A stretch of 64,000 nt of DNA from an uncultured archaeon (lineage in GTDB: Archaea; Thermoproteota; Nitrososphaeria; Nitrososphaerales; Gagatemarchaeaceae), in assembly GCA_963799775.1 (NCBI GenBank), contig CAWCYD010000003.1:1952001-2016000 (forward strand), given 5' to 3'. Shown here one piece after another: positions 6,981 to 41,465 of this stretch. How positions within the stretch are numbered: position 1 is the stretch's first letter; each line of letters opens with the position of its first letter. The position numbers and the translations under genes are program-made. The notes under the pieces were generated by a model. It had not been told where the DNA came from and ran no database searches. It was given only the letters and a program-made list of their open reading frames with translations.

Positions 6981-7461
6981 AGGGGCGGGCAGCCTGTTCG
7001 TCAAGTACTCCAGCGTTTCGGCGAGTTGCGCTCGCTTCTCTTCCAGGCCCCTGTTCTCCCTCTCCAGAGCGGAGACCCTCTCCTCGAGCGCCGAAATCTC
7101 TCCCTCGGTTCTGCACCTTTCGATCTCTCGATCCAGCGCGTGGGACCTCTCCTCCATGGCTGCCAGCCTTTCTTGCATCTGAGCGTCCACCGACCGGGCC
7201 TCCTGCATCTCCTTGCCCAGCTGGGAGAGCTTCTCCCTGCTCAGGAGCGCGTACCGGCGCTTGCCCCTGACGGCAGGAATGTCGGTGCCGCAGCGCTTGC
7301 AGCTCATCAGGTCGATGATGACCGCTTCAGAAGCGGCGCCCAAGAGAGGCTCGCTCGAGTGCATGAAATGAAGAGCGGGCCGTGAAACTGTCCCCGTTGC
7401 AGCTGGGGCAGAGCAGGCCCTGCTTTTGCTCTCGCCGCTTCGACGGCGTCCCGTCAGGCAA
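6972..7461 (-). CDS. Zinc-ribbon plus coiled-coil protein (probable frameshift near ~7370)
   Basis: CPSC upstream and CKRC in ORF 6972..7364, then heptad-rich E/R/L tail. Confidence 0.5.
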
Positions 7462-7483
7462 CGTCAGCACTTGTCCTGCAGGC

Positions 7484-7747
7484 CTAGTTGGACTGGGCCT
7501 GAGGAGCGACTTGCTGTTGCTCTAAAGAGGGCTTTCCCTCTGCCAGCGCCCTGAGCATGTCCCTGACGACTCCTAGTGAGCTGTTGCTCGACTCGAGGAG
7601 AGCCGCGTATCTTGACATCTCCAAGATCGGTATCTGTTCGACGAGCACGGAGATCTCGTTCTCCAGCGCGGACCTTGTCTGCTCTAGGTCTCCCAGTCGT
7701 GCCTCTAGTTCTTCCCTTCTTCCTCGCGATTCGCTCGCAGTTTCCAT
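7484..7747 (-). CDS. Small coiled-coil protein
   Basis: ATG start, heptad pattern, co-oriented with 6972..7461. Confidence 0.55.
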   Translation of the reverse strand: METASESRGRREELEARLGDLEQTRSALENEISVLVEQIPILEMSRYAALLESSNSSLGVVRDMLRALAEGKPSLEQQQVAPQAQSN

Positions 7748-7880
7748 GTGGGTGCAGTAGGCGTCGCTCTATGTCTGCCACCCCGCCCAAATGAGTTGAG
7801 CCGGAGGTGAACTTTGGTGGAGCGGTCGACCACCGACCGCTCTCAGCTTATATCCCCGAGGGCGACGGTGCGTCCCAAAG

Positions 7881-8288
7881 ATGGTCCGAACGAGACGAAG
7901 AGGGACGGCCATCGTCGACACACCGAAGGGGATCCTCGTCGTCAGCAAGGACGGCGGGAGCTTCATCCTTCCCGGAGGAGGCGCGAACCGCGGCGAGAGC
8001 GAGAAGGACGCCACGATACTCGAGCTGAAGGAGGAGACTGGGATGGAGGCGGTCGAGGTCGACTACCTGTTCGACTTCACGGGGATGGTCCACAAGGACT
8101 CTAGGGGCAGTTACTTCAGGAACGCCCACAAAGTGTTCGTCGTGACGGAAGGGCACCCCCGAACCAAGGCAGGAGATCAGGCGGGTTGCATACTACGACG
8201 GCTCCGCGCCGAAGATATCCTACTCAGCGCGGCAGATCATCGAGAGTTACCGGTCTTCCAGAGCCTCGGGGCGCCAGACCCAGCATGA
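7881..8288 (+). CDS. NUDIX hydrolase (3' frameshift near ~8155)
   Basis: Nudix box LPGGGANRGESEKDATILELKEETG. Confidence 0.85.
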   Translation: MVRTRRRGTAIVDTPKGILVVSKDGGSFILPGGGANRGESEKDATILELKEETGMEAVEVDYLFDFTGMVHKDSRGSYFRNAHKVFVVTEGHPRTKAGDQAGCILRRLRAEDILLSAADHRELPVFQSLGAPDPA

Positions 8289-8365
8289 ACGCTCAAGGAA
8301 CCATCTTAGGTATTCATCAATACTAACACGTTTGATGTTCCCTAGGTTCTCCTTGATGATAGGCG

Positions 8366-8593
8366 ATGCCAAAGGACAAGGCCAAGGCTAAGGGGTCACA
8401 GCTGTTCAAGTGCGACAAGTGCGGGGCGACCTTCACAGACCGCGAGATGCTGGAGAAGCACATGAAGAGCCACACAACCGCAAGGACGCCGGGCCCCTCT
8501 GGCGGGGGCGAGACTGTGGTCCAGGGCCAACCGCGGACGCCTCCATCTTCAGCTCCACCCGAACCGACACCTGCCGTTCCTCAAACAGTGTAA
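8366..8593 (+). CDS. C2H2 zinc-finger small protein
   Basis: FKCDKCGATFTDREMLEKHMKSH plus Pro-rich tail. Confidence 0.8.
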   Translation: MPKDKAKAKGSQLFKCDKCGATFTDREMLEKHMKSHTTARTPGPSGGGETVVQGQPRTPPSSAPPEPTPAVPQTV

Positions 8594-8620
8594 ACGCTAC
8601 AATCACGAGCGCTAGGGGCG

Positions 8621-8935
8621 CTAGGTGTCCTTCGCGGTCTGCCCTTTCTTTCTCTTCGAGTCCATCGTCCTGTCGATGATCTCAGTCTGCTTCTGCAGGA
8701 ATGACCTGTACGCGCCCAAAAGCTCCGCCTGCTCCTTGCGCGTCATCTCGTCCACGGTCTTCAAAGCCTCGGTGAGACCCTTCGAAGCCTTGGCGAAGGA
8801 GCTGTCGAGGGCGTCCGCGACGTTGGGCACCTCGCGCGAAAGCCTCGCGCGGGCGGCACGGGTCACAGCGTCCAGAAGCTCGCCCGCGTTCTTCGCCGTC
8901 TCCTTCGCTTTCGCCTTGACCTCTTCCGAACTCAT
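8621..8935 (-). CDS. Helical hypothetical protein
   Basis: Start MSSEEVKAKAK at 8935 with TTAA box upstream. Confidence 0.6.
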   Translation of the reverse strand: MSSEEVKAKAKETAKNAGELLDAVTRAARARLSREVPNVADALDSSFAKASKGLTEALKTVDEMTRKEQAELLGAYRSFLQKQTEIIDRTMDSKRKKGQTAKDT

Positions 8936-8979
8936 GCCTGCTCTGACGACCCACCCATAGTTAAGACTCGCGGCGGCCC

Positions 8980-10243
8980 TCACGCCTTCTTTCTCATCCA
9001 GTTGTAGGCGATTCCCACCATCGCCATCACCAAGCTGACAGCGAGCAGCGTCCCGATGAAGGGGAGTATGGCCAGCGAGACCAGGAGCGACGCCCACGGG
9101 AGCAATCGTCTCGCTCCCCTCTCCTTGAGCATCCTGACGCCCGCCGCCGACCCGATGACATACGTGAGGATGGCCGCGCCGCTCGTCGTGAGAAAGGCAG
9201 ACTGGATGCCTATGTTGGCGAAGTAGAACACCGCTAGGCTCGCCATGACGACGGCGAGGAGGAAACCGGTCGAACGTCGAGGGACCCGCTCCTCTCGTCC
9301 ACCGTGGCGAGCACGCCCGGAAAGCCGCCGTCCCTGGAAGCGGCGTAGATCACCCTGGCCATACCTGCCACGTACGCGTTGACCGTGCCGAAGATTATGA
9401 CCACGGCCAGAGCCGAGATCACCACGACCCCCGAGGATCCTAGCACGGAAGACATGAGCACAGCGAATGGGGTGATCCCCCCGCCGCTCTCGTACGCCCC
9501 AGTGCCCACTATCGCGATCGCAACCGCGAGGTAGAGGACGCATACCAGGACGACGCTTATCGCGACGCTCCGCCCAAAGTCTCGCTTCGGGTCCTTGAAC
9601 TCCTCCGCCACGTTCGAGACGTTCTCGTATCCGAGGAACGACCAGACTATCAGAGCCGCTGCGACCCCCACCGAGGCGAGGCCGTCGGGCATGAACGGGG
9701 AGAAGTTGGAGGCGCTCACCTTCACGCTCGAGGCTACCACGGCGGACGAGAGGACGGCGATTATCACTGCGACCGTCGCCAGCTGGACCCTGCCGCTGAA
9801 CTTGATCCCGCGGAGGTTCACGGCGAACGCCGTCACGAGAAGCAGCCCCGCGAACAGGAAGGTCTCGGGCCTGGTCAACGGCACCGAGGACGCGACGTAG
9901 GAACCCGCCGCGAGGCTTATCGCTGGCGCCCCCGAGACAACCCATGCCACGAACAACCACGCGACGATCGCCGCAGTCCTCACACCGAACGCCTCCTTCG
10001 CGAAGGAGTAGATCCCGCCCGACTCTGGGTTGCGGGCCGAGAGCCTCGAGAAGGTGTATGCGAAAGGATAGCTCGCCAAAGAAAGAAGGCCCCAAGCCAG
10101 CAAGGAGGCGGGCCCTGCCGCCCTCGCGGCGAGCCCTGGGATCACGAGCACACCCGCCCCGAGGACGGAGCTGACGTAGAGCGCGACCGCGTAACGGAGG
10201 GTGATCTCCCGCTTCAGGTTCGAGGGCTGCAGACTCCGCGCAA
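8980..10243 (-). CDS. APC-family amino acid permease (frameshifted)
   Basis: LKREITLRYAVALYVSSVLGAGVLVIPG, PESGGIYSF, WSFLGYENVSNVAEEFKDPKR; multiple TM helices; start approximate. Confidence 0.88.
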
Positions 10244-11184: not shown

Positions 11185-11220
11185 GGAATACCCTGAACAT
11201 CGTTCTCAAAATGTCGAACA

Positions 11221-11230
11221 ATATTAAATA
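11221..11230 (+). promoter_or_regulatory. TATA-like box upstream of the Ku-ligase-PolX operon
   Basis: ATATTAAATA ~33 nt before ATG 11263, in a divergent intergenic gap. Confidence 0.5.
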
Positions 11231-11262
11231 TCGAGGAGGCCAACCTTTTCCAAGGTCTAGCC

Positions 11263-12111
11263 ATGGCAAAGAACATCTTCGCCGAGGTGGAGAAGCAGGC
11301 CGACGCGGCGAGCGCCTCGAGGGCATCGTGGCGCGGGTCCTGAGCCTGAACATCCCTACCCTGGGGCTCGGAGCGGTCGAGTACCACATGCGCGCGGCGA
11401 AGGCCCACAGCGACCTCAAGCCGGTCCATTACATCAAAGTGGACAAAAAGTCCGGCAAGGAGGTGGTCCCCCGCGAGGTCCCGAGGATGTACCGCTACAA
11501 GATGGGGCCCCAGCGGCGAGCGTGTCGACATGGAGGAGATCTCGCCAGACGAGGCGAAGAAGAAGGTGAGGTTCGACGGCAAGTGGCTAGTCTCGGTCCG
11601 CACGGAGAAGAGATACTTCCTGAAGCAGGAGCTTGAGGCCTCAGGCCAGTGGATAGAGATTCCCGTCAATCAGGTGATAGACAAGCAGGACGGCGAGGAG
11701 ATAGAGCCCTTCGACAGGACCGTCAGGGTCGAGGTCGACAAGGACGGTTTCGTCCCCCTGGAGAGGCTGGGGGAGTACAAGATGAAGGAGGTCTACCAGC
11801 TGGGGCCGGACACGGACAAGAAGGTGAAGGAGACCGTGTCAAGGGTAAAGCAGCTCGCACGCTATCTCCTCGAGAAGCAGACCGCATTGGTGGCCTTCTT
11901 CTCCTGGGGCAGAGGGTATCAGTTCTACACCGCTGTCATCTATCCTTACGAGAGGAAAGACGGGACGCTCTGGCTCCTCATGGGGATGAGCGAGGGAATC
12001 CTGCAGCTGGACGAGGCCTGGGCGCTCGAGTCGGAGGAGGAGAAGAAGGGGAAGCTGGCCCCTGTCCCGACCGCGACCAGGAAGAAGCCCAAGGTCAGCA
12101 TCTCAAAGTGA
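11263..12111 (+). CDS. ku: Divergent Ku (DNA end-binding) protein, ~282 aa after repairing two compensating indels (~11337, ~11510)
   Basis: N-terminal RASWRG(V)LSL resembles Ku RxxWKGxISF; FVPLERLGEYKMKEVYQLGPD and LARYLLEKQTALVAFFSW...TAVIYP...LLM resemble the Ku core FVxxxEIDPIYFEKPYYLxPD...LLxxAL...xAIAxFV; directly upstream of a DNA ligase. Confidence 0.7.
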
Positions 12112-12136
12112 TCCAAAAGGAACTGATCGCGCTTCA

Positions 12137-12964
12137 ATGAGCGACGAGCTCTCGAATTACGTCCTCGAGAACTTCGCGCACGCGGTCAAGATGCCGCTCG
12201 CCGATTGGTTGTTGAAGAACGAGCTACCCGCTCTGGCCGAGCCGAAGCTCGACGGCATCAGGGTCTTCCTCTTCAAGAGCGGAGAGAAGCTGATAATCTC
12301 GAGCAAGCGCGGCGAGCTCTACACTCCGAAGAGTAGCCCGAAGGTCTTCTCGACCGTCCCCGAGTTCGTCCACGCGCCCCATAGGATGATCTTGGACGGT
12401 GAATACTTGGCAAAGAAGGGTCTCTTCTTGTTCGACGTCCTCCAAGTCGACGACAGGGACGTGCGCTCCATGCCCCTCACCGAGAGGAAGAAGATTCTCC
12501 ACGAGATCCTGAGAGGCAACAACCTAGAGGTGAAGACGAAGCTCGCGAAGACCACAGAGCAGATTTTGGACCTGAAAGAGAGGTTCATCAAGAAAGGCGA
12601 GGAGGGGATGATGCTCAAGAACCCTACCTCCACCTACGGGCAGCCCAACTCCTGGCTGAAGCTGAAGAGGTTCGACACGATAGACTGCTTCGTCAATGCG
12701 TACGAGGAGACACAGGAGATGAAGAGGACGGGGGTCCCCAGGTCATGGTTCCTAGCGGTTTACGATGACAATGGGCAGAGGGTCGAGATAGGCAAGGTGG
12801 GCGCGTTCCTGGAGAGGGTGAAGCCCCAGGACGTCACCATTGGATCTGTCGTCGAGGTCCGGTTCACCCAGGTCACGGAGGACATGAAGCTCCGCGGGGC
12901 CTTCATCATCCGGGTCAGACACGACAAGACGCCCAGCGAGTGCCTCCTCTCCCAGTTGAAGTGA
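12137..12964 (+). CDS. Minimal ATP-dependent DNA ligase (adenylation + OB domains)
   Basis: Motifs I EPKLDGIR, III ILDGEY, IIIa FLFDVL, IV EEGMMLK, V WLKLK, VI RVRHDK. Confidence 0.92.
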   Translation: MSDELSNYVLENFAHAVKMPLADWLLKNELPALAEPKLDGIRVFLFKSGEKLIISSKRGELYTPKSSPKVFSTVPEFVHAPHRMILDGEYLAKKGLFLFDVLQVDDRDVRSMPLTERKKILHEILRGNNLEVKTKLAKTTEQILDLKERFIKKGEEGMMLKNPTSTYGQPNSWLKLKRFDTIDCFVNAYEETQEMKRTGVPRSWFLAVYDDNGQRVEIGKVGAFLERVKPQDVTIGSVVEVRFTQVTEDMKLRGAFIIRVRHDKTPSECLLSQLK

Positions 12965-13503
12965 CCTTGGCCTACAAGAAGGACCTCGACCCCAAGTTCG
13001 CGAAGAAGATCGCAGACGACTTTCAGAAGAGGACCAATGACCTTTGCAAAAGAATCGACCTCGCGGGGAGCCTGAGAAGGCAAGCGCGTGTCGTGCACGA
13101 CATCGACTTCGCGGTCATCCCCAAGGGCGAGTTCGCAAAGTGGAAGGCGAAGGTCGAGGAGCGTCTTGGGGAGATAGGCGCCAGGGAGATCAACTTCGGC
13201 GAGGTGATAGCAGGCTTCCTCTACAAGGGCGTGCAGATCAACTACTTCATCTGCCCGAGCGAAGATTCTTGGGGCGTGACGTACATGTGGGCCACGGGCC
13301 CCAAGGGGCACACGATAGGCATGACAATAAAGGCACGGAACAAGGGACTGCTCATCAACTCGCAGGGGATTTGGACGCGAGAGACTCCTCCGACCTTGAT
13401 ACCAGCGAGGACGGAGCACGACGTGGCGAGGATCCTCGCTTGGAAGTACAAGCCTCCGGAGACGCGCGGGATTGACGTGAAGGAGAAACGTGCGTTCTAC
13501 TAG
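12961..13503 (+). CDS. polX: Minimal family X DNA polymerase (palm + thumb only, ASFV PolX-like size)
   Basis: AGSLRR...HDIDF, WATGPKGH, GLLINSQGIW, TEHDVARILAWKYKPPETR; GTG start overlaps ligase TGA (GTGA). Confidence 0.85.
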   Translation: MTLAYKKDLDPKFAKKIADDFQKRTNDLCKRIDLAGSLRRQARVVHDIDFAVIPKGEFAKWKAKVEERLGEIGAREINFGEVIAGFLYKGVQINYFICPSEDSWGVTYMWATGPKGHTIGMTIKARNKGLLINSQGIWTRETPPTLIPARTEHDVARILAWKYKPPETRGIDVKEKRAFY

Positions 13504-13515
13504 GCGAGCAGGCGC

Positions 13516-13710
13516 TCACCAGATCGTCATGAGCTTGCTCACTTTCTGGGTCGTCTTCTCCCAGTACTTGTAGTAGCACTCGGCGCAGAGCGTCGGTTCG
13601 CTTCTGGCGGCGGGCTGCCCGCACCACTCGCAGGACTTGGCCAAGGCCCTATGGGAGGGGTGGCACTGGGTTATCTCCCTTTTGGAACCTTCTACTTGTG
13701 AAACACTCAT
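13516..13710 (-). CDS. Small zinc-finger protein
   Basis: CEWC...CAEC pair. Confidence 0.55.
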   Translation of the reverse strand: MSVSQVEGSKREITQCHPSHRALAKSCEWCGQPAARSEPTLCAECYYKYWEKTTQKVSKLMTIW

Positions 13711-13755
13711 CTGGAACTTCACTCCTCTGGCGTCTCAGGGTGTTGTGCTTTGAGC

Positions 13756-13921: not shown

Positions 13922-14413
13922 CTATTTGATGATGCCGCCCTCGCCGAGGAAGACAGAGACCGTCGTCCCGTCTGTCAGAAAGACGACGACTTGGCCTTCC
14001 GTCGGAGGCCGTAAGCTGCATCCAATGTCCGGCGGACAGTGCTCCATCGGGACCAGAGGAACGCTCGCTGTCACCTGGATGTCATTCCCAGACATCCTTA
14101 CATTGGTCGTGGCAGACGTATCATTGATCTGCACCGACTTTACCAGAGACGCCGTCGCAGTGTAGCCAGGCTTGGGGTCGAGCACGACGGTGCACGAGAA
14201 CGAACCGCCGGCTGCGCAGCGGCTGCTGATATCCACTGTGAGGTTCTTGTTGGGCGTGGTCGGCAGAAGTGCTATCGCTATTCCCACAGCCAGGATGACG
14301 ACGACCACGGCAGCAACGATCCTGAGCCTCTTCCTCCGCTGTGCGGCTCTCGCCCTGTCCTCTGGCGTGTCGCCTATCATCGTCGGCTCGTCGATAGGCT
14401 GGTCGAGCGACAT
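13922..14413 (-). CDS. Membrane-anchored small secreted protein, tandem copy 2
   Basis: Basic stretch + TM + four-Cys beta domain; paralog of 14424..14918. Confidence 0.75.
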   Translation of the reverse strand: MSLDQPIDEPTMIGDTPEDRARAAQRRKRLRIVAAVVVVILAVGIAIALLPTTPNKNLTVDISSRCAAGGSFSCTVVLDPKPGYTATASLVKSVQINDTSATTNVRMSGNDIQVTASVPLVPMEHCPPDIGCSLRPPTEGQVVVFLTDGTTVSVFLGEGGIIK

Positions 14414-14423
14414 CAGCCAGTCC

Positions 14424-14918
14424 TCACTCTCCGTTCGTTACGCCTAGCAATGCGGAGACAGTCGTCCCATCTGTCATAAAGACGGTGATTTGTGCGTGTG
14501 TCGGGGGCGGCTGGCTGCACCCGATGTCAGGCAGACAGTGTGACTCCGCGACAAGTGGGACGCTCGCCCCGATCTGAATTTCACTGCCGGCCATCTTCAC
14601 CGTAGAGGTGGTGGTGTCTGTCCCGTTTATCTGCACCGACTTTACCAGAGACGCCGTCGCAGTGTAGCCAGGCTTGGGGTCGAGAAAGACATTGCATGAC
14701 AGCGAACCGCCGGCTGCGCAGCGGCTATTCGCGAAGTCCACCGTGAAGTTCTTGCTGGGTGTGGTCGGGATTAAGGCGACAACGATTCCCACAGCCAGGA
14801 TGACGACGACCACGGCAGCAACGATCCTGAGCCTCTTCCTCCGCTGTGCGGCTCTCGCCCTGTCCTCTGGCGTGTCGCCTATCATCGTCGGCTCGTCGAT
14901 AGGCTGGTCGAGCGACAT
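14424..14918 (-). CDS. Membrane-anchored small secreted protein, tandem copy 1
   Basis: N-terminal ~45 aa identical to 13922..14413; TTATGA/ATAAG box upstream. Confidence 0.75.
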   Translation of the reverse strand: MSLDQPIDEPTMIGDTPEDRARAAQRRKRLRIVAAVVVVILAVGIVVALIPTTPSKNFTVDFANSRCAAGGSLSCNVFLDPKPGYTATASLVKSVQINGTDTTTSTVKMAGSEIQIGASVPLVAESHCLPDIGCSQPPPTHAQITVFMTDGTTVSALLGVTNGE

Positions 14919-33764: not shown

Positions 33765-34553
33765 CTAGGTTGTAAGGTCGTAGGTTATTTCGTTCGAGTA
33801 CTCGGTTATTCCAGAGTAGGACAGGTTGGATTGTTCGGCAGTATTGATGTTGGTCCCACCGTAATAGGGTCCGCTGCAAGTAATACTGCTCGATGTGCTG
33901 TATTGGTAGGTGTATGACGAATCGTGCAGGAAAAGCAGAACGCTGAACAACGTTGTTGCGCTTGGAGTGAAGCCAGTATGTGGTGTCCCGGTATTGATTC
34001 CGTAAACACCCGAGTATGCGCCAGCGTATCCCGCAATATTGTACGAGGAAGGAGAATACGAGAGTGATGTGTCTGCAAAGAGGACGTTGTAGTTGTTGTC
34101 GAGAAGTTCACCGCCTCCTTCGACTGCTGTTCCAGAATAAGAAAGCGTTAGTTCCCATGAGTATCCGACTCCGAGAGTGGTGGTATATCTGGACGAGAAT
34201 GCCTGATGATAGGTTCCTCCAACAAGGACGGATAGCTGGAGCAGAGTAGTGGTCGATGTACCGGAGCTGTTTTCCTCCGCTACCATTTGCGCCCAATAGC
34301 TGTTGCCTTGGGTGTCAAAGACATCGCCGTTTAGTTGGATGCTGTAGCTTGAGCTATTGGTAGAGAACGAGTGATCTATGGTGGTTTGTGAAGCCGGTGT
34401 TATACCGGCTGAACAGTCGTTACCAGTTGCATAGTAGTTGGTTCCAGAAGTGCTGCCTCCTATGTTGGCGAATAGCGCTGTGAGAGGAGTTGCAAGGATG
34501 ATTGCCAGTCCTGTCAGAACGAACAGAGTTTGCTGTTTGCGTGTGAAGTTCAT
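33765..34553 (-). CDS. Secreted thermopsin-like (peptidase A5-like) domain protein
   Basis: Signal peptide; SIQLNG...YWAQMV and C-terminal TAEQSNL resemble thermopsin SLQLN/YWxQNV/TxET motifs. Confidence 0.55.
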   Translation of the reverse strand: MNFTRKQQTLFVLTGLAIILATPLTALFANIGGSTSGTNYYATGNDCSAGITPASQTTIDHSFSTNSSSYSIQLNGDVFDTQGNSYWAQMVAEENSSGTSTTTLLQLSVLVGGTYHQAFSSRYTTTLGVGYSWELTLSYSGTAVEGGGELLDNNYNVLFADTSLSYSPSSYNIAGYAGAYSGVYGINTGTPHTGFTPSATTLFSVLLFLHDSSYTYQYSTSSSITCSGPYYGGTNINTAEQSNLSYSGITEYSNEITYDLTT

Positions 34554-34656
34554 TTTCGATTGGAGGACTAAGAATCAATACTTGCCGCCAATCTCACCCA
34601 GAACCGTGCTGCAGAGCTAACGTGTGCACGAGGGCACTTGGGTTAGCTTCTCTGCC

Positions 34657-35202
34657 CTAGACCTTGCTATGGTCTCTCGACCTTCTGTTGTTATCATTCG
34701 TCCAGTCGGTCGAAGACGCCTGAATGGGAATTCCCTCGGAAGACGGGATCCTGATTAGGCAAATAGGCAACGAATACTCATGCCTGATCAATTCTGCTAG
34801 CTTCTCTACAGTTAGGGGACTGACCACGAAGTACGCTATATTGAGAGTCGGAAACATAATTTCGAACTCTTCTTTCCTTATCTCGAAAGGAGTTGCAAAG
34901 GCGATTCTGAAATCGTGTTGAAACGCAGTCAAGTGTTTGTACACTTCGAACATGCTCATCTTCCGAGGACAAACATCAACAATCACGAAATCGTGAAGTT
35001 CCAGACCCAAGGTGGTGAAGGCCTCTTCCAGTGTTGTGGAGAGGTCTACTTCGAACTTGTGTACTCTCAGATTTGCCTTGGCAAAGTGAGGTAGTTGTGC
35101 GTGGTCGGAAATCAGTAATATTCGGCCTTTTGGCGCGCCCTTCGGCACGTTGCGTGGCTTCCCCACCCAACGTGCAAACGGTCCGGAAGATAGCCCTAGC
35201 AT
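34657..35202 (-). CDS. Atypical response-regulator receiver domain
   Basis: RILLISD...DFVIVD..PRKMSMFEVY...FATPFEIRKEEF...FVVSPLT: thaumarchaeal REC pattern, conserved Lys missing. Confidence 0.7.
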   Translation of the reverse strand: MLGLSSGPFARWVGKPRNVPKGAPKGRILLISDHAQLPHFAKANLRVHKFEVDLSTTLEEAFTTLGLELHDFVIVDVCPRKMSMFEVYKHLTAFQHDFRIAFATPFEIRKEEFEIMFPTLNIAYFVVSPLTVEKLAELIRHEYSLPICLIRIPSSEGIPIQASSTDWTNDNNRRSRDHSKV

Positions 35203-35326
35203 TGGACTTTCTAAGAGTGTTCTGGCATTTCTACCCTAGTTCACCCATGCAACCTAGGTTACCTGTTAACGTGGGATATTGGAGCAAATCCTCACTATTG
35301 ATGCTATGCATCAGGAGACTTTGAAT

Positions 35327-35587
35327 CTAGGAGTCAACCCTCAAGCGTGACGCTTGGAGGTCAGGGTTTTGGAGGGCCTTCTCCAATGGCATCAGAAGGA
35401 TCCCCTGGTCCGTCTCTATGAAGACAAACACTTTCTTCTCAAGCTCCCTGGCCGACCATTTTTGGAGGCCGTAGACTCGGGCAATCTGTCTTGGCAGGGT
35501 GATTCGGAGAGACCCACCCTGTGAATATGGCGAGGCAGCGCCAAGAATCCATTCGACTTTGATCTTCAGTTCCTTCTTTTCGCTCAT
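35327..35587 (-). CDS. AbrB/SpoVT-like DNA-binding protein, copy A
   Basis: QGGSLRITLPRQIARVYGL swapped-hairpin motif. Confidence 0.75.
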   Translation of the reverse strand: MSEKKELKIKVEWILGAASPYSQGGSLRITLPRQIARVYGLQKWSARELEKKVFVFIETDQGILLMPLEKALQNPDLQASRLRVDS

Positions 35588-35841
35588 CTAGGAATCTTGC
35601 TCCTTGAAAACCTCTCGGCAGTCTGTTGATTATGGTTTGGGCTGTGTCTCAGTTTCCATCTTTCGCCTTGTAATCCTTCTATGTGATCTTGAGAGAGCAA
35701 ATGTCGCAAATGAGCCCTGATAGTCCGCCTTGAATAGGCGGTGAGCAATACGAGATCTTGGACCGATGCAGGTTCATTCTTCTTCAGGAGGGCGAGGTAA
35801 ATCCTCCCACACGCATAACACTTGGACGATGAGTCTTCCAT
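35584..35841 (-). CDS. Small wHTH protein with N-terminal CxxC, copy A
   Basis: CYACGRIYLALL...ASVQDLVLLTAYSRRTIRAHLRHL...WKL; ATGA overlap with AbrB gene. Confidence 0.7.
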   Translation of the reverse strand: MEDSSSKCYACGRIYLALLKKNEPASVQDLVLLTAYSRRTIRAHLRHLLSQDHIEGLQGERWKLRHSPNHNQQTAERFSRSKIPR

Positions 35842-36118
35842 GTTGGGATTCCTAGCGATGAACCTTTCGATATACCCAAAGAAATACCAGAGTCCTAGTC
35901 CCTATCGTGAAAGTATTGTCAAAGGCCTCGGGGTCTATTGATGGCTTTTGCATTAAACCTAGATGGGAAATCCACATTTAACGACCGATTGTCAAACACA
36001 TGGCTTGGAACCTCGGGAATCAGTGCTAATTCTCCTGGTGTCTAGCTTTGTCTGCCTGTGGTTCTATGTGTAATGAAGCAAAAAGCCGTAGAGTCAACAG
36101 AGCCTTTGCATGGTGATG

Positions 36119-36149
36119 TCCAGTCTTCGTTTGGTCTAGCGTAAGATGC
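36119..36149 (+). repeat. Boundary site, internal partial copy 2
   Basis: TCCAGTCTTCGTTTGGTCTAGCGTAAGATGC. Confidence 0.75.
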
Positions 36150-36223
36150 TCCATAGAAGCTGTTGCACCATAGCAACTCATTCAAGAGAAGAAGATTTTG
36201 GTAAAAAAGATCGCGAGGGGCAG

Positions 36224-36703
36224 CTACGCATATGGGGCACGTGCTCTACAGACATCGACAAGTTTCCTTATCGTCAGCGGTCTCACGATGAAGAAGCGTA
36301 CGTTGATACCTGGAAACATTGTCAAGAACTCGCTCTTCTTTATCTCAAAAGGGGAGATAATACCCAGCACAGCTTCCCCACAGCCGCTCATTCTTCTGCA
36401 CAATTCGAACACGCTTACTTTTGCGGAGAAAGTATCAAGAACTACCAGTTCTTGATGATTCGAGTTGATGCTGGCAGCAGCACCCTCGAGCGATGAGGTC
36501 GCATCCGCCTCAACGCCGAGCCGCTTAAGATTCGCCGTTAAGGCACAAAGCCCTTCATTGTCGGCTGTTACGAGCAATACTCGGCTCGGCAAATTATACC
36601 TTATGCTCGGGTGCGACCTCGAGCCCTTTCGCAGAATTCGGGAAGACGATTCTGGCAAGAACTTCACTAATACTGTTCTATCGACGTATTTGCCCTGGCT
36701 CAT
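36224..36703 (-). CDS. Atypical receiver domain, second copy
   Basis: RVLLVTAD...ELVVLD...VSVFEL...ISPFEIKKSEF..MFPG...FIVRPLT. Confidence 0.7.
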   Translation of the reverse strand: MSQGKYVDRTVLVKFLPESSSRILRKGSRSHPSIRYNLPSRVLLVTADNEGLCALTANLKRLGVEADATSSLEGAAASINSNHQELVVLDTFSAKVSVFELCRRMSGCGEAVLGIISPFEIKKSEFLTMFPGINVRFFIVRPLTIRKLVDVCRARAPYA

Positions 36704-36804
36704 TTAGATACCTACGCCCTTGTTAACAGGATTCACACGCTAACTTCTAAGTGGGACGCTTCGGAATTTGCCTGCGCGCACGAGTATCTACCACGATTCG
36801 TTTT

Positions 36805-37053
36805 GCTCTATCTTGAGTCGAGAAGCTTGCAGATTTGGACTCTGGAGAACTTGTTCCAACGGCATGAGCACGGGCCTCCGCATCGGTCTCATTGAATACA
36901 AAGACCTCTTTTCAAGGTCTCTGTCAGACCAATTCTTGTAGTCCATAAACACGGGTAATCTGTCCGGGAAGAGTTATCCTGAGAGATTCAACTTGGCGGC
37001 CCAGCCCCAAGAAATCGACTCGACGGTTATGTGCAGTTAGTTTTACCGCTCAT
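36805..37053 (-). pseudogene. Decayed third copy of the AbrB-like gene
   Basis: Broken frames give SLRITLPGQITRVYGL, WSDRDLEKR, LMPLEQVLQSPNLQASRLK with several indels/stops. Confidence 0.8.
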
Positions 37054-37397
37054 GCTAGATTTTGACCTTTTGTGGTATTCCTGAGCGACTCCACTAGGTG
37101 ACCTGTCTGGGAACGGCATACAGTTTGCGACTGGTATCTTAGCCATCTGTTGGTTCGCGCCAATCAATCTGGGAGTGTACGACCAAGGCCGCCATGGGGA
37201 GCTTAGGCTCAATACCCTCTGTTAATCAGGGGCGTCTCCCAGATCAACACGGAGTTCCATATCCTCGCGTAGCTGCTTCACCTTCTAGATCAAGCCGTTA
37301 ACCCGGAGGCGAGTTCCATCGGTTAACAGGTACCGAGACAGCTGCGTCCCCGCGTTAGACAGGCGCCATCACTCCTAAACTTCACATCAAATCGAAA

Positions 37398-38201
37398 ATG
37401 AATCACCGACTCGAAAATCGACAATTCCTTCCAATCTCAGCAGCAATCCTCGCCCTGTTGGTAATGTTGCCAGTCGCTGCGAAAGGCGATGTAGGCAACA
37501 GCAACACCTACTACACCATGTATCATAGCGGTTCTTCCCTGGGCGAAGTCTCAGGTTCCGCTCAAATCAACAATTGGGGTGGCACTTGTACCGTATACAC
37601 TGACGATACAAAGACTACCCAGGTCAGTGGCTGTTCGTTCAGCATCCAACAGAACGTCGGGATGTATGACAGCGCATCAGACTTCATATGGACGCAAGCC
37701 GTGTGGTATGTCTGCACGACCTGCACCAACGCATACTTCCAACCTAACTTCGAAGTGTACCAGTCCTCCTCGTGCGGATCCACAACTCCATGCACGAATG
37801 TCGTCGGTACCGCCTACGACTTCACCAGTCCCTTGACCGACTACTCCTTCTGGTCAGATGTCTACACCAGCGGCAGCGAAATCATAGCCAACTTCACAGC
37901 CACATACACGCCCACAGACACAACGGTGTTGTCATGGAACCACGCCTACAGCAGCTCTTTCTCCGGCCTATACACAACAAATACTTACATTGTTGCAGTG
38001 GGTATCGGAGGAGGACAGTACACTGAGTTTGCCAGTGGCACGGATTTCAGCATGAACAACTATGTGTCAACAACATGGTCCGAATGCGTCTTCTCGACAT
38101 GCACTCCTTGGTACAACACACTCACGGGCGAAGGATCCGATCTGAGCTACAGCGGCGTGGCATCAGGTACCTACAACCTCTCTTACGCCCTCGACTACTA
38201 G
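37398..38201 (+). CDS. Secreted thermopsin-like domain protein, second variant
   Basis: Signal peptide; SIQQNV...IWTQAV, VGIGGGQYTEF, TGEGSDLSYSG; similar layout to 33765..34553. Confidence 0.55.
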   Translation: MNHRLENRQFLPISAAILALLVMLPVAAKGDVGNSNTYYTMYHSGSSLGEVSGSAQINNWGGTCTVYTDDTKTTQVSGCSFSIQQNVGMYDSASDFIWTQAVWYVCTTCTNAYFQPNFEVYQSSSCGSTTPCTNVVGTAYDFTSPLTDYSFWSDVYTSGSEIIANFTATYTPTDTTVLSWNHAYSSSFSGLYTTNTYIVAVGIGGGQYTEFASGTDFSMNNYVSTTWSECVFSTCTPWYNTLTGEGSDLSYSGVASGTYNLSYALDY

Positions 38202-38439
38202 CAACAAGACGCAAATCAGCGAAAGATGGTACTCGAGTTCTTTCGGGAGCCGAGTACCTTCCAAATTTTTTTCGGAAAAATCTCCTGCAAAGCAGCCGAC
38301 CACTGGCAAGCGATAACCAGATGCGAGCGCAATACCCTAGCAGATGAGAAAATGACTAGGATTGTCAAAACTGCAGTTGCCCGAAAGACTTGTTTCTAGG
38401 CGCTGGACCTGATTGGGTACCGAAAGCTTTGTCTTGGGT

Positions 38440-39279
38440 TTACTGCAATCCTTCCCAGTTCGGGAATGCCACGTCAACATAATTCATGCTTGTCGATATT
38501 TGGAAGGACGTCAAGAGGAATGGTGATGCGGGACAGCTCGGCAGGATTCCTTCCGAACCTGCAAAGTCAGACGCATTTACTTGCCCTGTCTGATAACCTA
38601 CGGCCAAGGGGAACGAGAGGCATCCCGCAAGCCTAGGGAACGACTCATCATAGAATCCCGTGGCGTTTGTGTGCGCCGTGAGGAGATAATCAACAGTGAA
38701 AGTGGAGTTTACTGAGAGTTCAGTCAGGTTCTCACTTTGGGGAAAAGCGAAGATCGAGAATGAGGGAGTGTAATCCTTTAGGTGTTGGACGCTCATGGCG
38801 CCACCCGCAGACCTCGTGAAGTTATCTTTCCAAATTCGAATCTGGTTTCCCACCTCGCCGTTTTGGTAAAAGGTATCACCAAGCTGCGAACTTGGAAGGA
38901 CTTCTAGGTAGGTCAGTCGTATGCAAACGTTCGAGTTCAGATTAGGTACCACCAATACTGGTATCGTGATGTTCGTCGTGTTCTCGCTTACCTCTGCTCC
39001 GATTGGCGCATTCTGAAAATTTCCACACTCGGAAGGGAAGCTTGTCTCAGTCTTGGTAATAGTGCTGAAGAGCTGTTGGACACTTGTAACGGTCGAAGTA
39101 TTAACAACACTCGGGGCATGTGATGTTGTCGTCACGAATACCGAATATGTAGCGGTGGTCGTGATGAAACGCGTAGATGTTGACGTTGTGACGCCAAGAA
39201 GGCTGTCGTATCCGGCTATGGAACCAAACACTACTGTAAGAACGACAAAGACCAAGGATATCATCCTGAAGTTCGGCAA
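38440..39279 (-). CDS. Membrane-anchored secreted protein with Thr-rich stalk
   Basis: Signal anchor, Thr tract, TIPVLVVP..VC, ATGFYD...C..FPLAVGY. Confidence 0.7.
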   Translation of the reverse strand: MPNFRMISLVFVVLTVVFGSIAGYDSLLGVTTSTSTRFITTTATYSVFVTTTSHAPSVVNTSTVTSVQQLFSTITKTETSFPSECGNFQNAPIGAEVSENTTNITIPVLVVPNLNSNVCIRLTYLEVLPSSQLGDTFYQNGEVGNQIRIWKDNFTRSAGGAMSVQHLKDYTPSFSIFAFPQSENLTELSVNSTFTVDYLLTAHTNATGFYDESFPRLAGCLSFPLAVGYQTGQVNASDFAGSEGILPSCPASPFLLTSFQISTSMNYVDVAFPNWEGLQ

Positions 39280-39543
39280 TTGCGCTCTGGCGAAAGGGTC
39301 GAAGCCCCCAAAAAAATCTTCTGGTATTTATTTTCTGAGACTTGCGTCTGGTTGTATTGCTGTTCCTTTTGAAATAGGGAAGAGCCACTCTAACCCTAAG
39401 ATTGCCCACGTATTCTGTCGAGTTAGGCAGAATCTAATTGACGCAGTAGCCAACAAGTCATGGCCGAATCGCAACATGGACATGAAGCTCTAGGCCTACT
39501 AACTCCAACTTCTCTCCACATATCCGCAGGGGGATTCAGTCAA

Positions 39544-39813
39544 CTAGGCTGAATCCGAGTCGATTCTGAATCGTGATGCTCCGAGGTCGGGATTTTGGAG
39601 GGCCTTCTCGAGTGGCATCAGAAGGATTCCTTGGTCCGTCTCTATGAAGACAAACACTTTCTTCTCAAGTTCCCTAGCCGACCATTTTTGGAGGCCGTAG
39701 ACTCGGGCAATCTGTCTTGGCAGAGTAATTCGGAGAGACCCGCCCTGTGAGTATGGCGAAGCAGCGCCGAGAATCCACTCGACTTTTATCTTCAGCTCCT
39801 TCTTTTCGCTCAT
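39544..39813 (-). CDS. AbrB/SpoVT-like DNA-binding protein, copy B
   Basis: First 77 aa identical to 35327..35587 despite synonymous changes. Confidence 0.75.
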   Translation of the reverse strand: MSEKKELKIKVEWILGAASPYSQGGSLRITLPRQIARVYGLQKWSARELEKKVFVFIETDQGILLMPLEKALQNPDLGASRFRIDSDSA

Positions 39814-40067
39814 GTCTGAACGTTGCTCCTTGAAAATCTCTCAACATTCTGTTGATTATGGTCTAGGCCGTACTTCAATTTCCATCTTTCGCCACGCAAT
39901 CCTTCTACGTGATCTCCCAAGAGCAGATGTCGCAGATGAACCCTGATAGTTCGCCTTGAATAGGCGGTTAGCAAAACGAGATCTGGAATCGATGCAGGTT
40001 CGTTCTTCTTTAGAAGGGAGAGGTAAATCCTCCCGCATGCATAGCACTTGGACGATGCGTTTTCCAT
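39810..40067 (-). CDS. Small wHTH protein with CxxC, copy B
   Basis: Paralog of 35584..35841; same ATGA coupling. Confidence 0.7.
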   Translation of the reverse strand: MENASSKCYACGRIYLSLLKKNEPASIPDLVLLTAYSRRTIRVHLRHLLLGDHVEGLRGERWKLKYGLDHNQQNVERFSRSNVQT

Positions 40068-40458: not shown

Positions 40459-41465
40459 TTGAACGTCGACCCGAAGCTCGTGAAGTATCCCTTCCTCAGG
40501 TCCGCCAGGGACTTCCTCGTCTCGTATCCGCTGGACGAGGTGGTGGAGTCGGTCTACAAGCCGATCCTCGACCAGGCGCGCTACCGCCTCACCCTCGCGG
40601 TGAGGAACCCCAACTTCGACGTCCAGAACGTGCGCCTTCTGGGCTACCAGCCCTACGCCAGATGGAGCAAGGACACTAGGAACCCGGAGGACGTGATAGA
40701 GTTCTACAGCTACTTCGTCGCGGTCCTCGCCTCGAAGAACGAGCCTTACCTGACCCTTGCCCTTGCGAGGACAGAGGCTGCAAGGGCCAAGTCGTTCTTC
40801 ATCAAGGAGCCGCCGGAGCAGATGATAGCCCTCCTCAAGGAAGCTGCGGGTCTTGAGCTCAAGCTCCTCGAGCCTGAGCGCGGGGGAGGGGGCCAAGACG
40901 TGATAACGTGTCCCTTTGAGAAGTACGTCGAGGTGGTCACCGAATACGAGCTCACGAGGGAGGCGAGGTGGCAGCTGGTCAACACACGGCTCTCGGGAGG
41001 ACTGATCTACTTCACGGTCAACGACATCAAGGACCTCTTCGCCGCCCTCGTCCAGGGCCTGATGATCTCGGGCATGAGGTCGCTCAGGGCTTCGCCGGTC
41101 CCCGGCTTCGTCCGCTCCCTGGTGGACGAGTTCAGGTCGCTGATACCGAGGCCTCCCACACGCCAGCAGAACCAGTTCGACTACATCAAGCGCCTGCTCG
41201 AGCATCCCATCACGGACGGGAGGCACCGCGTGATCTGGCTGATACTCGCGCCCTACTTCACCACGATCAGGGGGATGGACGAGGCTTCAGCGACGGACGC
41301 GGTCCTCTCCTACATAGGGGCTCGCGATACAAGCAGTTCATCCGCTACAACGTCCGGAGGGCCATGCGTAGCGGGCTCTTCCCGCTCTCGGAGCAGTCGA
41401 TAATGAAGAACCACCCCGACGTGATGGCGGTGCTCCCAAAGGGCGTGCTAAAGGAAGCACAATAA
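40459..41465 (+). CDS. priL: Primase large subunit N-terminal domain fused to PriX-like domain (frameshift ~41320)
   Basis: KYPFL, ARTEAARA, WQLVNTRLSGGLIY (PriL-NTD); YIKRLLEHPITDGRHRVIWLILAPY...IRYNVRRA..SGLFPLS (PriX-like); no Fe-S Cys set. Confidence 0.7.

Follow-up and report, generated by a model that had tools for sequence, protein, structure and literature searches.

A conserved Ku–ligase–PolX operon as a probable end-joining module of soil Thaumarchaeota

Described end-joining systems and the Ku–ligase–PolX operon

Prokaryotic non-homologous end joining (NHEJ) combines Ku either with LigD or with separate ligase, polymerase and phosphoesterase proteins, the polymerase belonging to the archaeo-eukaryotic primase (AEP) family; it is represented by Mycobacterium, Bacillus subtilis and Methanocella paludicola, whereas eukaryotic NHEJ uses Ku70/80, DNA ligase IV and the family X polymerases Pol lambda and Pol mu. 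Archaeal end joining has been called very rare, and the available parts of two sources name a single complete, characterised system, that of Methanocella (PMC8708640, PMC7554672); according to the second of these, as far as its available text goes, the ancestor of the ammonia-oxidising Nitrososphaerales gained a complete bacterial NHEJ complex (PMC7554672). Here we analyse three adjoining genes for a divergent Ku, a minimal ATP-dependent DNA ligase and a minimal homologue of family X DNA polymerases (PolX) in an uncultured archaeon of the family Gagatemarchaeaceae; they lie in a stretch of 64,000 nucleotides (G000:C3:1952001-2016000, hereafter the window) of a 2.47-Mb assembly that consists of 3 contigs and is 82% complete. 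Judged from sequence, these genes probably constitute a conserved chromosomal operon of non-ammonia-oxidising soil Thaumarchaeota that most likely acts as a self-contained end-joining repair module, and the frameshifts in the Ku gene of the window are most probably assembly errors.

All three genes are on the forward strand. The Ku-like gene (11263-12111; start ATG 11263, stop TGA 12109-12111) has 280 codons if intact; in the window its reading frame is found in three pieces, at 11263-11337 (frame 1), 11340-11510 (frame 0) and 11512-12108 (frame 1). After an intergenic gap of 25 nucleotides (nt; 12112-12136) follows the ligase gene (12137-12964; start ATG 12137, stop TGA 12962-12964), which encodes 275 amino acids (aa) with a nucleotidyltransferase and an OB domain. 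The third gene (12961-13503) encodes a palm-plus-thumb protein of 180 aa, hereafter mini-PolX, with the active-site residues D47, D49 and N94; its start codon GTG 12961-12963 overlaps the ligase stop codon TGA 12962-12964 in the sequence GTGA (4-nt overlap). An alternative start at GTG 12940 would yield 187 aa, and the database copy of the same protein has 180 aa. Upstream, a TATA-like A/T-rich element, aatattaaatat, was read directly at 11220-11231 on the forward strand, 32-43 nt 5' of the Ku start codon. A comparable A/T-rich box of the TTAAATA, TTATAAA or TTTATATA type occurs within 70 nt 5' of the start in all 17 relatives examined, roughly 30-50 nt from the start codon when read by eye, and its surroundings are GC-rich; the element presumably serves as a promoter. 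On re-reading, the layout given by the initial annotation of this DNA proved correct throughout, from coordinates, 25-nt gap and GTGA overlap to the TATA-like box and the approximate indel sites. The conserved gene order, the tight junctions and the conserved upstream A/T-rich box all speak for an operon.

A locus scan at one genome per species yielded 42 loci, all from metagenome-assembled genomes of Thaumarchaeota or Nitrososphaerales and one of them from Candidatus Gagatemarchaeum stordalenia. The order Ku, ligase, PolX is kept on one strand in 37 of these loci, Group I.1c (Gagatemarchaeaceae) included, which answers the expectation of the initial annotation that the three genes should be conserved together; the operon is carried by this group and by a second family of the same order. 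Three of the five exceptions lie at a contig edge; the others are L066, with Ku alone, and L070, with a frameshifted Ku and a ligase without PolX. Mean column identity is highest in Ku (77%), followed by the ligase (73%) and mini-PolX (67%), and the trio is spread over the two archaeal families with 60-90% identity, the flanking genes varying among relatives. Within the family, 24 of 36 sampled genomes yielded divergent Ku and 20 of 41 yielded mini-PolX; of the 25 genomes that the two samples share, 14 contain Ku together with mini-PolX, 8 contain neither, two contain Ku alone (one of them at a contig end) and one contains PolX alone (at a contig start), counts that derive from related genomes and not from independent samples. 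A search of the window's own genome for amoA gave no match, which carries little weight since control genomes gave none either.

The operon is interrupted in some of its relatives. An extra open reading frame (ORF) of about 160-170 aa stands between Ku and ligase in L005, L009, L033, L049, L058 and L061 and has a LAGIIDGEG-type motif with a weak match to Pfam LAGLIDADG_1 (0.0037); inserts of 0.6-1.5 kb separate ligase and PolX in L033, L042 and L069. By their sequences, the operon inserts look like free-standing homing endonuclease genes.

The three predicted proteins

The Pfam model of the Ku70/Ku80 beta-barrel (PF02735; curated cut-off 25 bits) matches the C-terminal Ku piece of the window at 23.6 bits, below the cut-off; of six intact relatives, four score above it (32.0, 35.6, 26.2 and 35.1 bits) and two below (22.6 and 22.4 bits). 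These matches are marginal and mark the protein as a divergent member of the family. When a profile of 33 Ku sequences was compared with the Protein Data Bank, only two distinct sequences were matched, both of them Mycobacterium tuberculosis Ku entries (E 3e-5). An intact relative with 83% identity to the C-terminal piece was modelled by AlphaFold2 at a predicted local distance difference test (pLDDT) score of 77.6, with low to middling confidence at residues 59-74 and about 100-150; Foldseek returned Ku chains throughout among the matches listed (best E 2e-8), and VIA-align gave Z 14.4 against both M. tuberculosis Ku (over 172 residues, root-mean-square deviation 5.2) and B. subtilis Ku (over 122 residues, deviation 2.6), and Z 12-13 against human Ku80. 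The family is narrow and remote, with 62 cluster representatives among 1.84 billion proteins at E 1e-3; NCBI labels two database copies as 'Ku protein' and the remaining named copies as 'hypothetical protein'. Only one Ku match was found in the window's own genome. Sequence and predicted fold thus agree in supporting a Ku homologue as the first gene product, as the initial annotation had proposed, and the beta-barrel fold that it had named as a check is found in the model of the intact relative.

The ligase is matched by Pfam DNA_ligase_A_M (PF01068) at 87.6 bits (1.2e-24; cut-off 26.2), besides weak matches to C-terminal OB models, and has no separate DNA-binding domain. Residues K37, G40 and R42 (K37 within KxDG), D87, G88 and E89, F99 and D100, K161, K175 and K177, and R261, D263 and K264 are invariant in 29 sequences; we take them to represent the motifs I, III, IIIa, IV, V and VI, so that the six nucleotidyltransferase motifs of a 275-aa ligase in the initial annotation are borne out. 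The best NCBIfam match is NHEJ_ligase_lig (TIGR02779) with 100.7 bits, far under the equivalog cut-off of 227.75, and by this measure the protein falls outside the LigD-type NHEJ ligase domain. A profile search of solved structures placed archaeal replicative ligases first (4eq5, 9e-18) and also returned 1vs0, 'Putative DNA ligase-like protein Rv0938', at 7.7e-4. These results support a minimal ATP-dependent DNA ligase; the same genome contains two more matches to ATP-dependent ligases, in open frames of 599 and 627 aa.

The third protein matches the Pfam model DNA_pol_B_thumb (PF14791) at 36.8 bits (3.7e-9; cut-off 25). A profile of 22 mini-PolX sequences had its best match in residues 180-316 of a 575-aa PolX chain (3au2, 7.7e-11), which belongs to Thermus thermophilus, judged from the title of the sister entry 3auo. 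Profile positions 15-168 also align with residues 18-173 of a 174-aa chain entitled 'Repair DNA polymerase X' (E 1.4e-7), and a 178-aa variant chain of this title is matched at E 5.3e-8; we take these chains of 174-178 aa (1jaj, 5hrb) to be the enzyme of African swine fever virus. The predicted structure (pLDDT 87.7) consists N-terminally of one helix and nothing more; Foldseek relates it to Pol beta, Pol lambda and the T. thermophilus PolX 3auo at E values of about 1e-10 to 1e-9, and for Pol beta and Pol lambda at E 1.6e-10 or below with TM-scores (query) of 0.65-0.73. Only positions 164-315 of the 571-position PolX model are covered, and the protein is without the 8-kDa (dRP lyase) domain, the helix-hairpin-helix of the fingers and the C-terminal PHP domain. 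The thumb match, the palm-thumb fold and the length of 180 aa support a palm-plus-thumb family X protein, in keeping with the PolX of about 180 aa that the initial annotation had placed third. Elsewhere in the same genome, the minus strand encodes a full-length PolX of the canonical type (G000:C3:10732-12423; locus L071 433-2124), which has 563 aa, an Asp-Asp-Asp triad and a PHP domain at its C-terminus. Recent truncation of this resident PolX was considered as an origin of mini-PolX and is ruled out by an identity of 28% over 138 aa.

The active site of mini-PolX is altered in one position. The protein has the G-S-x-R-R loop and the D-x-D pair; where the third catalytic Asp would align, it has Asn (N94) in all 158 sequences compared, which comprise the window, 37 loci and 120 database proteins. 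In the alignment, N94 corresponds to the Asp of QVDLR in 3au2, of QLDLF in the small 'Repair DNA polymerase X' chains, and of VQVDLR in the resident long PolX. Residues G36, S37, R39, R40, H46, D47, D49, N94 and C98 are invariant throughout the same set. A family X DNA polymerase is recognised by three acidic residues that bind metal in the palm, and mini-PolX has Asp, Asp and Asn in their place. PolX proteins in which any of the three catalytic acidic residues is replaced are termed noncanonical in the available part of a PolX survey, which reports them to be without polymerase activity and to act as exonucleases, and counts 302 unique and highly variable variants of the triad; the authors ascribe this variability to further substitutions after inactivation (PMC9226535). 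Since its third acidic residue is replaced, mini-PolX is noncanonical by this definition, as far as the available text states it. Unlike those variable triads, its entire site is invariant, which points to retained binding of nucleotide and metal.

On the sequence evidence, the chances that mini-PolX polymerises are close to even. Gap filling, which the initial annotation suggested testing, is an assumption for this protein, because the third catalytic Asp is invariantly Asn. It is a real possibility, a little short of an even chance, that mini-PolX is not a polymerase and persists in the module as a silent or re-purposed subunit, for example as a sensor of gaps or termini, a bridge between ends, or a clamp for a ligase that lacks a separate DNA-binding domain; the canonical PolX-PHP protein would then carry out any synthesis at the break, and the module would still be one of end joining, though without this gene filling gaps in the eukaryotic manner. 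The uniform replacement by N94 accords with this possibility, set against the Asp that is retained in 3au2 and in the small repair chains, in the resident PolX-PHP and in two short phage PolX proteins, and 33 of 41 family genomes contain another PolX match, situated in a long open frame (563-737 aa). The polymerase-inactive altered triads point the same way in the available text of the survey, although their high variability is the opposite of the frozen site seen here (PMC9226535). General chemistry and precedent leave room for catalysis. An Asn can bind metal through its carbonyl oxygen, and several polymerase families operate with two carboxylates. A complex prediction for ligase and mini-PolX, made without control runs, gave a score of 0.00 and speaks neither for nor against a contact.

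Comparison with other end-joining genes and systems

The initial annotation had described a stripped-down module with no AEP polymerase or phosphoesterase gene. The first part of the latter statement stands: the AEP polymerase (LigD Pol domain, TIGR02778) was found in none of the 41 family genomes searched at E 1e-3, which are 55-100% complete, while the B. subtilis control was positive, and in the window's own genome the search for a LigD-type AEP polymerase found none, the best E being 0.04. The second part applies to the operon and not to the genome, in which a stand-alone LigD-type 3'-phosphoesterase (LigD_N, TIGR02777) is encoded at G000:C3:1330075-1330546 (locus L023 1396-2086), split by a frameshift, about 634 kb from the operon and adjoining a gene for a CDC48-like AAA ATPase. 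A stand-alone phosphoesterase occurs in 29 of the 41 family genomes, 26 times above the model cut-off, and never beside the Ku operon where both positions are known (G007, G018, G030 and the window's own genome). With a canonical PolX-PHP and a phosphoesterase in the same genome, the operon is not the only possible source of gap filling and end cleaning; the operon is therefore less self-sufficient, and the genome less bare, than the initial annotation had supposed.

Two kinds of Ku occur in the order. Classical Ku, scoring 140-167 bits against the Pfam Ku model, is found in 12 of 23 genomes of family f15 and in one of nine of family f4; divergent Ku, at 21-28 bits, occurs in 8 of 24 genomes of family f1 and 2 of 13 of family f7, and in these two f7 genomes it shares a contig with mini-PolX. 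Profile comparison between divergent and classical Ku of the order is barely significant (E 0.022 over 37 columns) and too weak for placing both in one tree. In the four f15 genomes tested, an open frame of 924-1007 aa with a LigD polymerase domain stands close to classical Ku (within about 0.4-2.5 kb), and no mini-PolX was found in these four. By sequence, classical Ku with LigD in f15 agrees with the acquired bacterial complex in the available account of the ammonia oxidisers (PMC7554672), and the Ku–ligase–PolX operon appears as a different module.

Prokaryotic NHEJ is among the closest known systems. In both, one gene encodes a Ku of about 280 aa whose C-terminal tail is basic, a dedicated ATP-dependent ligase is encoded beside it, and the distribution is sporadic and accessory; the operon's ligase has an NHEJ ligase domain as its best NCBIfam model, and a LigD-type phosphoesterase is present in the genome. 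The operon differs in having a family X protein where the AEP polymerase would stand, an unlinked phosphoesterase, a strongly divergent Ku, and a ligase that in the search of solved structures is no more distant from archaeal replicative ligases (4eq5 at 9e-18 against 1vs0 at 7.7e-4). With eukaryotic NHEJ it has in common the combination of Ku, an ATP-dependent ligase and a family X protein, and a core similar to that of Ku80 (Z about 13); unlike the eukaryotic system, it has one Ku gene instead of a paralogous pair, its Ku of 280 aa is too short for vWA or SAP domains and its ligase of 275 aa for BRCT repeats, and mini-PolX is without BRCT, 8-kDa and fingers domains and has an altered triad. 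No extra Pfam domains were found in the proteins of 280, 275 and 180 aa, which separates them from the eukaryotic set. The 'eukaryote-like composition' of the initial annotation is thus apt as a functional analogy, the same three superfamilies being involved, and misleading as a statement of relationship, given the matches to M. tuberculosis Ku and T. thermophilus PolX; the likeness, as judged by these comparisons, is one of composition and not of demonstrated descent, and the sequence affinities are to bacterial Ku and PolX and possibly also to small enzymes of the phage type. The present findings give no sign that the eukaryotic pathway descends from the archaeal operon.

Mini-PolX itself has three kinds of counterpart. 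The minimal viral PolX (1jaj, 5hrb) likewise consists of palm and thumb only, is of nearly the same length and is partnered with a ligase; it retains the third Asp (QLDLF) where mini-PolX has Asn, and identity is low. The viral PolX–ligase system is, to our knowledge, without Ku. Escherichia phage vB_EcoM_IME392 (locus L072, record 7051-9817) encodes a small PolX immediately 5' of a DNA ligase, a similar arrangement with different proteins: this PolX has 252 aa with an N-terminal extension of about 70 residues and a canonical third Asp, the ligase has 647 aa, and the annotation of the 10-kb stretch includes no Ku gene. The noncanonical prokaryotic PolXs resemble mini-PolX in having one catalytic acidic residue replaced; as the available part of the survey has it, all studied prokaryotic PolXs carry a PHP domain, which mini-PolX does not, and the altered triads vary (PMC9226535), where mini-PolX has one strictly invariant Asp-Asp-Asn site. 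The same portion of the survey reports PolX in genomic association with NHEJ genes and assigns 288 of 296 archaeal PolX sequences to Euryarchaeota (PMC9226535).

An operon of this kind appears to be undescribed in the literature searched on archaeal NHEJ, thaumarchaeal Ku and PolX, although supplements may list its genes, and the initial annotation had likewise not recognised the combination from archaea. NHEJ, DNA repair, ligase and polymerase are absent from the main text of the Gagatemarchaeaceae genome paper, whose supplements may list such genes (PMC10640624); Thaumarchaeota Ku is listed only for Nitrososphaera and Nitrosocosmicus in a paper on Ku evolution that never mentions PolX (PMC11936186), and neither a survey of bacterial NHEJ (PMC7719229) nor a review of archaeal break repair (PMC8708640) mentions PolX or Thaumarchaeota. 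By its composition, then, the operon is apparently a real and conserved variant of prokaryotic end joining that has not been described. More tentatively, the end joining of this TACK lineage may have replaced the AEP polymerase by a family X enzyme, with the trio used by eukaryotes cast as a stripped-down archaeal operon and with a PolX whose Asp-Asp-Asn site is known from no active family X polymerase. If this is true, the site would mark a catalytic variant not seen before or else give the Pol beta fold a novel, non-catalytic part to play at DNA ends, and the operon would be a third, PolX-based composition of the end-joining kit, widespread in abundant archaea of acid soils. The order offers a natural comparison of one family with classical Ku and LigD and two others with divergent Ku, mini-ligase and mini-PolX; the frozen Asp-Asp-Asn site poses the question of what the Pol beta fold is capable of without the third carboxylate, and the proteins of 180 and 275 aa, among the smallest of their families, are attractive for structural work and as tools.

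Functional readings and genomic surroundings

In the favoured reading, the divergent Ku would ring a DNA end and hold it; the 275-aa ligase, without a DNA-binding domain of its own, would be brought to the end and seal it. The PolX-like protein at the junction may add or fill a few nucleotides by means of its Asp-Asp-Asn metal site, or may instead bind nucleotide or DNA and help to align the termini for ligation; the phosphoesterase and the canonical PolX-PHP from elsewhere in the genome could clean ends and fill ordinary gaps in trans. Several observations weigh against an active end-joining module: the third carboxylate, which defines active PolX enzymes, is replaced by Asn, so that mini-PolX counts as noncanonical; the patchy occurrence of Ku and mini-PolX in the family makes the module accessory; L070 has Ku and ligase but no PolX, and L066 has Ku alone. 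The broken reading frame of Ku in the window, discussed next, belongs with them.

The first frame break lies at 11335-11337 (forward strand) in a GGG run that has one base fewer than in the relatives, and the second at 11504-11511 (forward strand) in the run GGGGCCCC (G4C4) with one base more, both according to a DNA alignment with nine relatives. Ku is intact in all 17 relatives aligned, and the window pieces tile the whole 280-aa protein of these relatives and lack a single residue, where the first break falls. Among 19 related loci taken from genomes of the family, 18 have the three pieces in one frame of about 280 codons, and the exception coincides with an NN scaffold gap; two frameshifts were met in relatives, one at this kind of gap and one, in L070, that alone is perhaps real. 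GTG 11328 was considered as the true start of Ku, in which case a single frameshift would suffice, and was ruled out because the relatives start at an ATG matching 11263 and conserve the N-terminal 25 residues.

Both breaks occur in homopolymer runs, and other genes of the assembly are split likewise, the LigD_N phosphoesterase gene among them (Pfam profile positions 1-77 and 79-107 in two frames); the breaks are for these reasons read as homopolymer errors of the assembly, most probably both of them. It is unlikely, by comparison, that Ku is a true pseudogene here, or is switched by slippage in the homopolymer runs, and that the module is inactive or decaying in this organism. Two frame breaks within one gene of 850 nt, in a module that is accessory and often not found in relatives, would suit such decay, but the indels compensate each other, the three pieces are free of stop codons and further lesions and are evenly 82-88% identical to the closest intact relative used, similar single-base splits affect other genes of the 3-contig assembly, and the downstream ligase and PolX genes are intact. 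The available reads neither confirm nor reject the indels: in the one public soil run found to hold 15% of the sampled words, none of the nine listed contig pieces bridges 11335-11337 or 11504-11511 and the nearest ends at 11501, which leaves room for a real pseudogene and counts with the points against an active module.

A different task for the same proteins, the repair of nicks, abasic sites or single-strand gaps in place of double-strand breaks, with Ku aiding the processing of ends or abasic sites, is quite improbable; the trio would then be a minimal kit for base excision or strand-break repair that resembles the small viral pair of PolX and ligase. It would accord with the end-to-end alignment between mini-PolX and the 'Repair DNA polymerase X' chains of 174-178 aa; the PolX of African swine fever virus presumably works with the viral ligase in base excision repair. 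Ku is, however, a ring that requires a free DNA end for loading, as established for solved Ku structures; in addition, no AP endonuclease or glycosylase gene lies in or beside the operon, and mini-PolX is without the 8-kDa dRP-lyase domain. Processing of abasic sites by bacterial Ku is reported in the available part of one study (PMC4245934), and the available text on the genomes of the hosts assigns these archaea to acidic soils (PMC10640624), where damage by depurination would be plausible.

For the ligase–PolX pair, a viral ancestry is possible on sequence grounds. The nearest feature clusters to mini-PolX (158-196 aa) and to the ligase (244-316 aa) in the ESM Atlas are mostly those of tailed phages, which are leads and not alignments, and GenBank phages provide five weak matches to mini-PolX with 25-28% identity over 77-89% of its length. 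Capture of the entire trio from a virus or mobile element, which it would serve in place of the host chromosome, for example by circularising or protecting linear element DNA, might be read from these phage neighbours, the PolX directly 5' of a DNA ligase in vB_EcoM_IME392, the homing-endonuclease-like ORFs between the genes of several relatives and the differing flanking genes, but it is very improbable: IMG/VR pattern scans with the Ku and PolX alignments, which are insensitive to distant relatives, found none, in PHROGs the ligase matches the generic phrog_114 only and Ku and PolX match nothing, genes for an integrase, a capsid or a terminase are absent near the operon, a tRNA search of the window found none, and the identity of 60-90% across two archaeal families is as expected of vertically kept host genes.

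The neighbours of the probable end-joining operon are genes for a cupin, a GNAT acetyltransferase, a permease and small proteins without a Pfam match. PADLOC assigned none of the three operon proteins to a defence system, and an Rfam scan of the whole window returned no family at its gathering score. The amino-acid permease at 8980-10151 on the minus strand (AA_permease_2, 2e-40, profile positions 25-322 of 427) appears to run on in a second frame that holds the last transmembrane helices, probably owing to a single-base assembly indel. Convergent to the PolX gene, an ORF of 68 aa on the minus strand (13516-13722) shows a CxxC...CxxC spacing and no Pfam match; tblastn gave a partial match at the same place in L007, over 26 aa with 69% identity, clipped by the end of the locus. 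Two tandem paralogous genes follow on the minus strand (13922-14413 and 14424-14918; 163 and 164 aa), with 44 identical N-terminal residues that include a membrane anchor and no Pfam match. Farther downstream, the G+C content falls to 0.49-0.50 at about 34000-40000, compared with about 0.61 elsewhere in the window; four of five ORFs scanned in this stretch are without a Pfam family, one has a sub-threshold response-regulator match, and an ORF just past it (40459-41403) has a sub-threshold match to PriX. The low-G+C stretch may be a foreign island.

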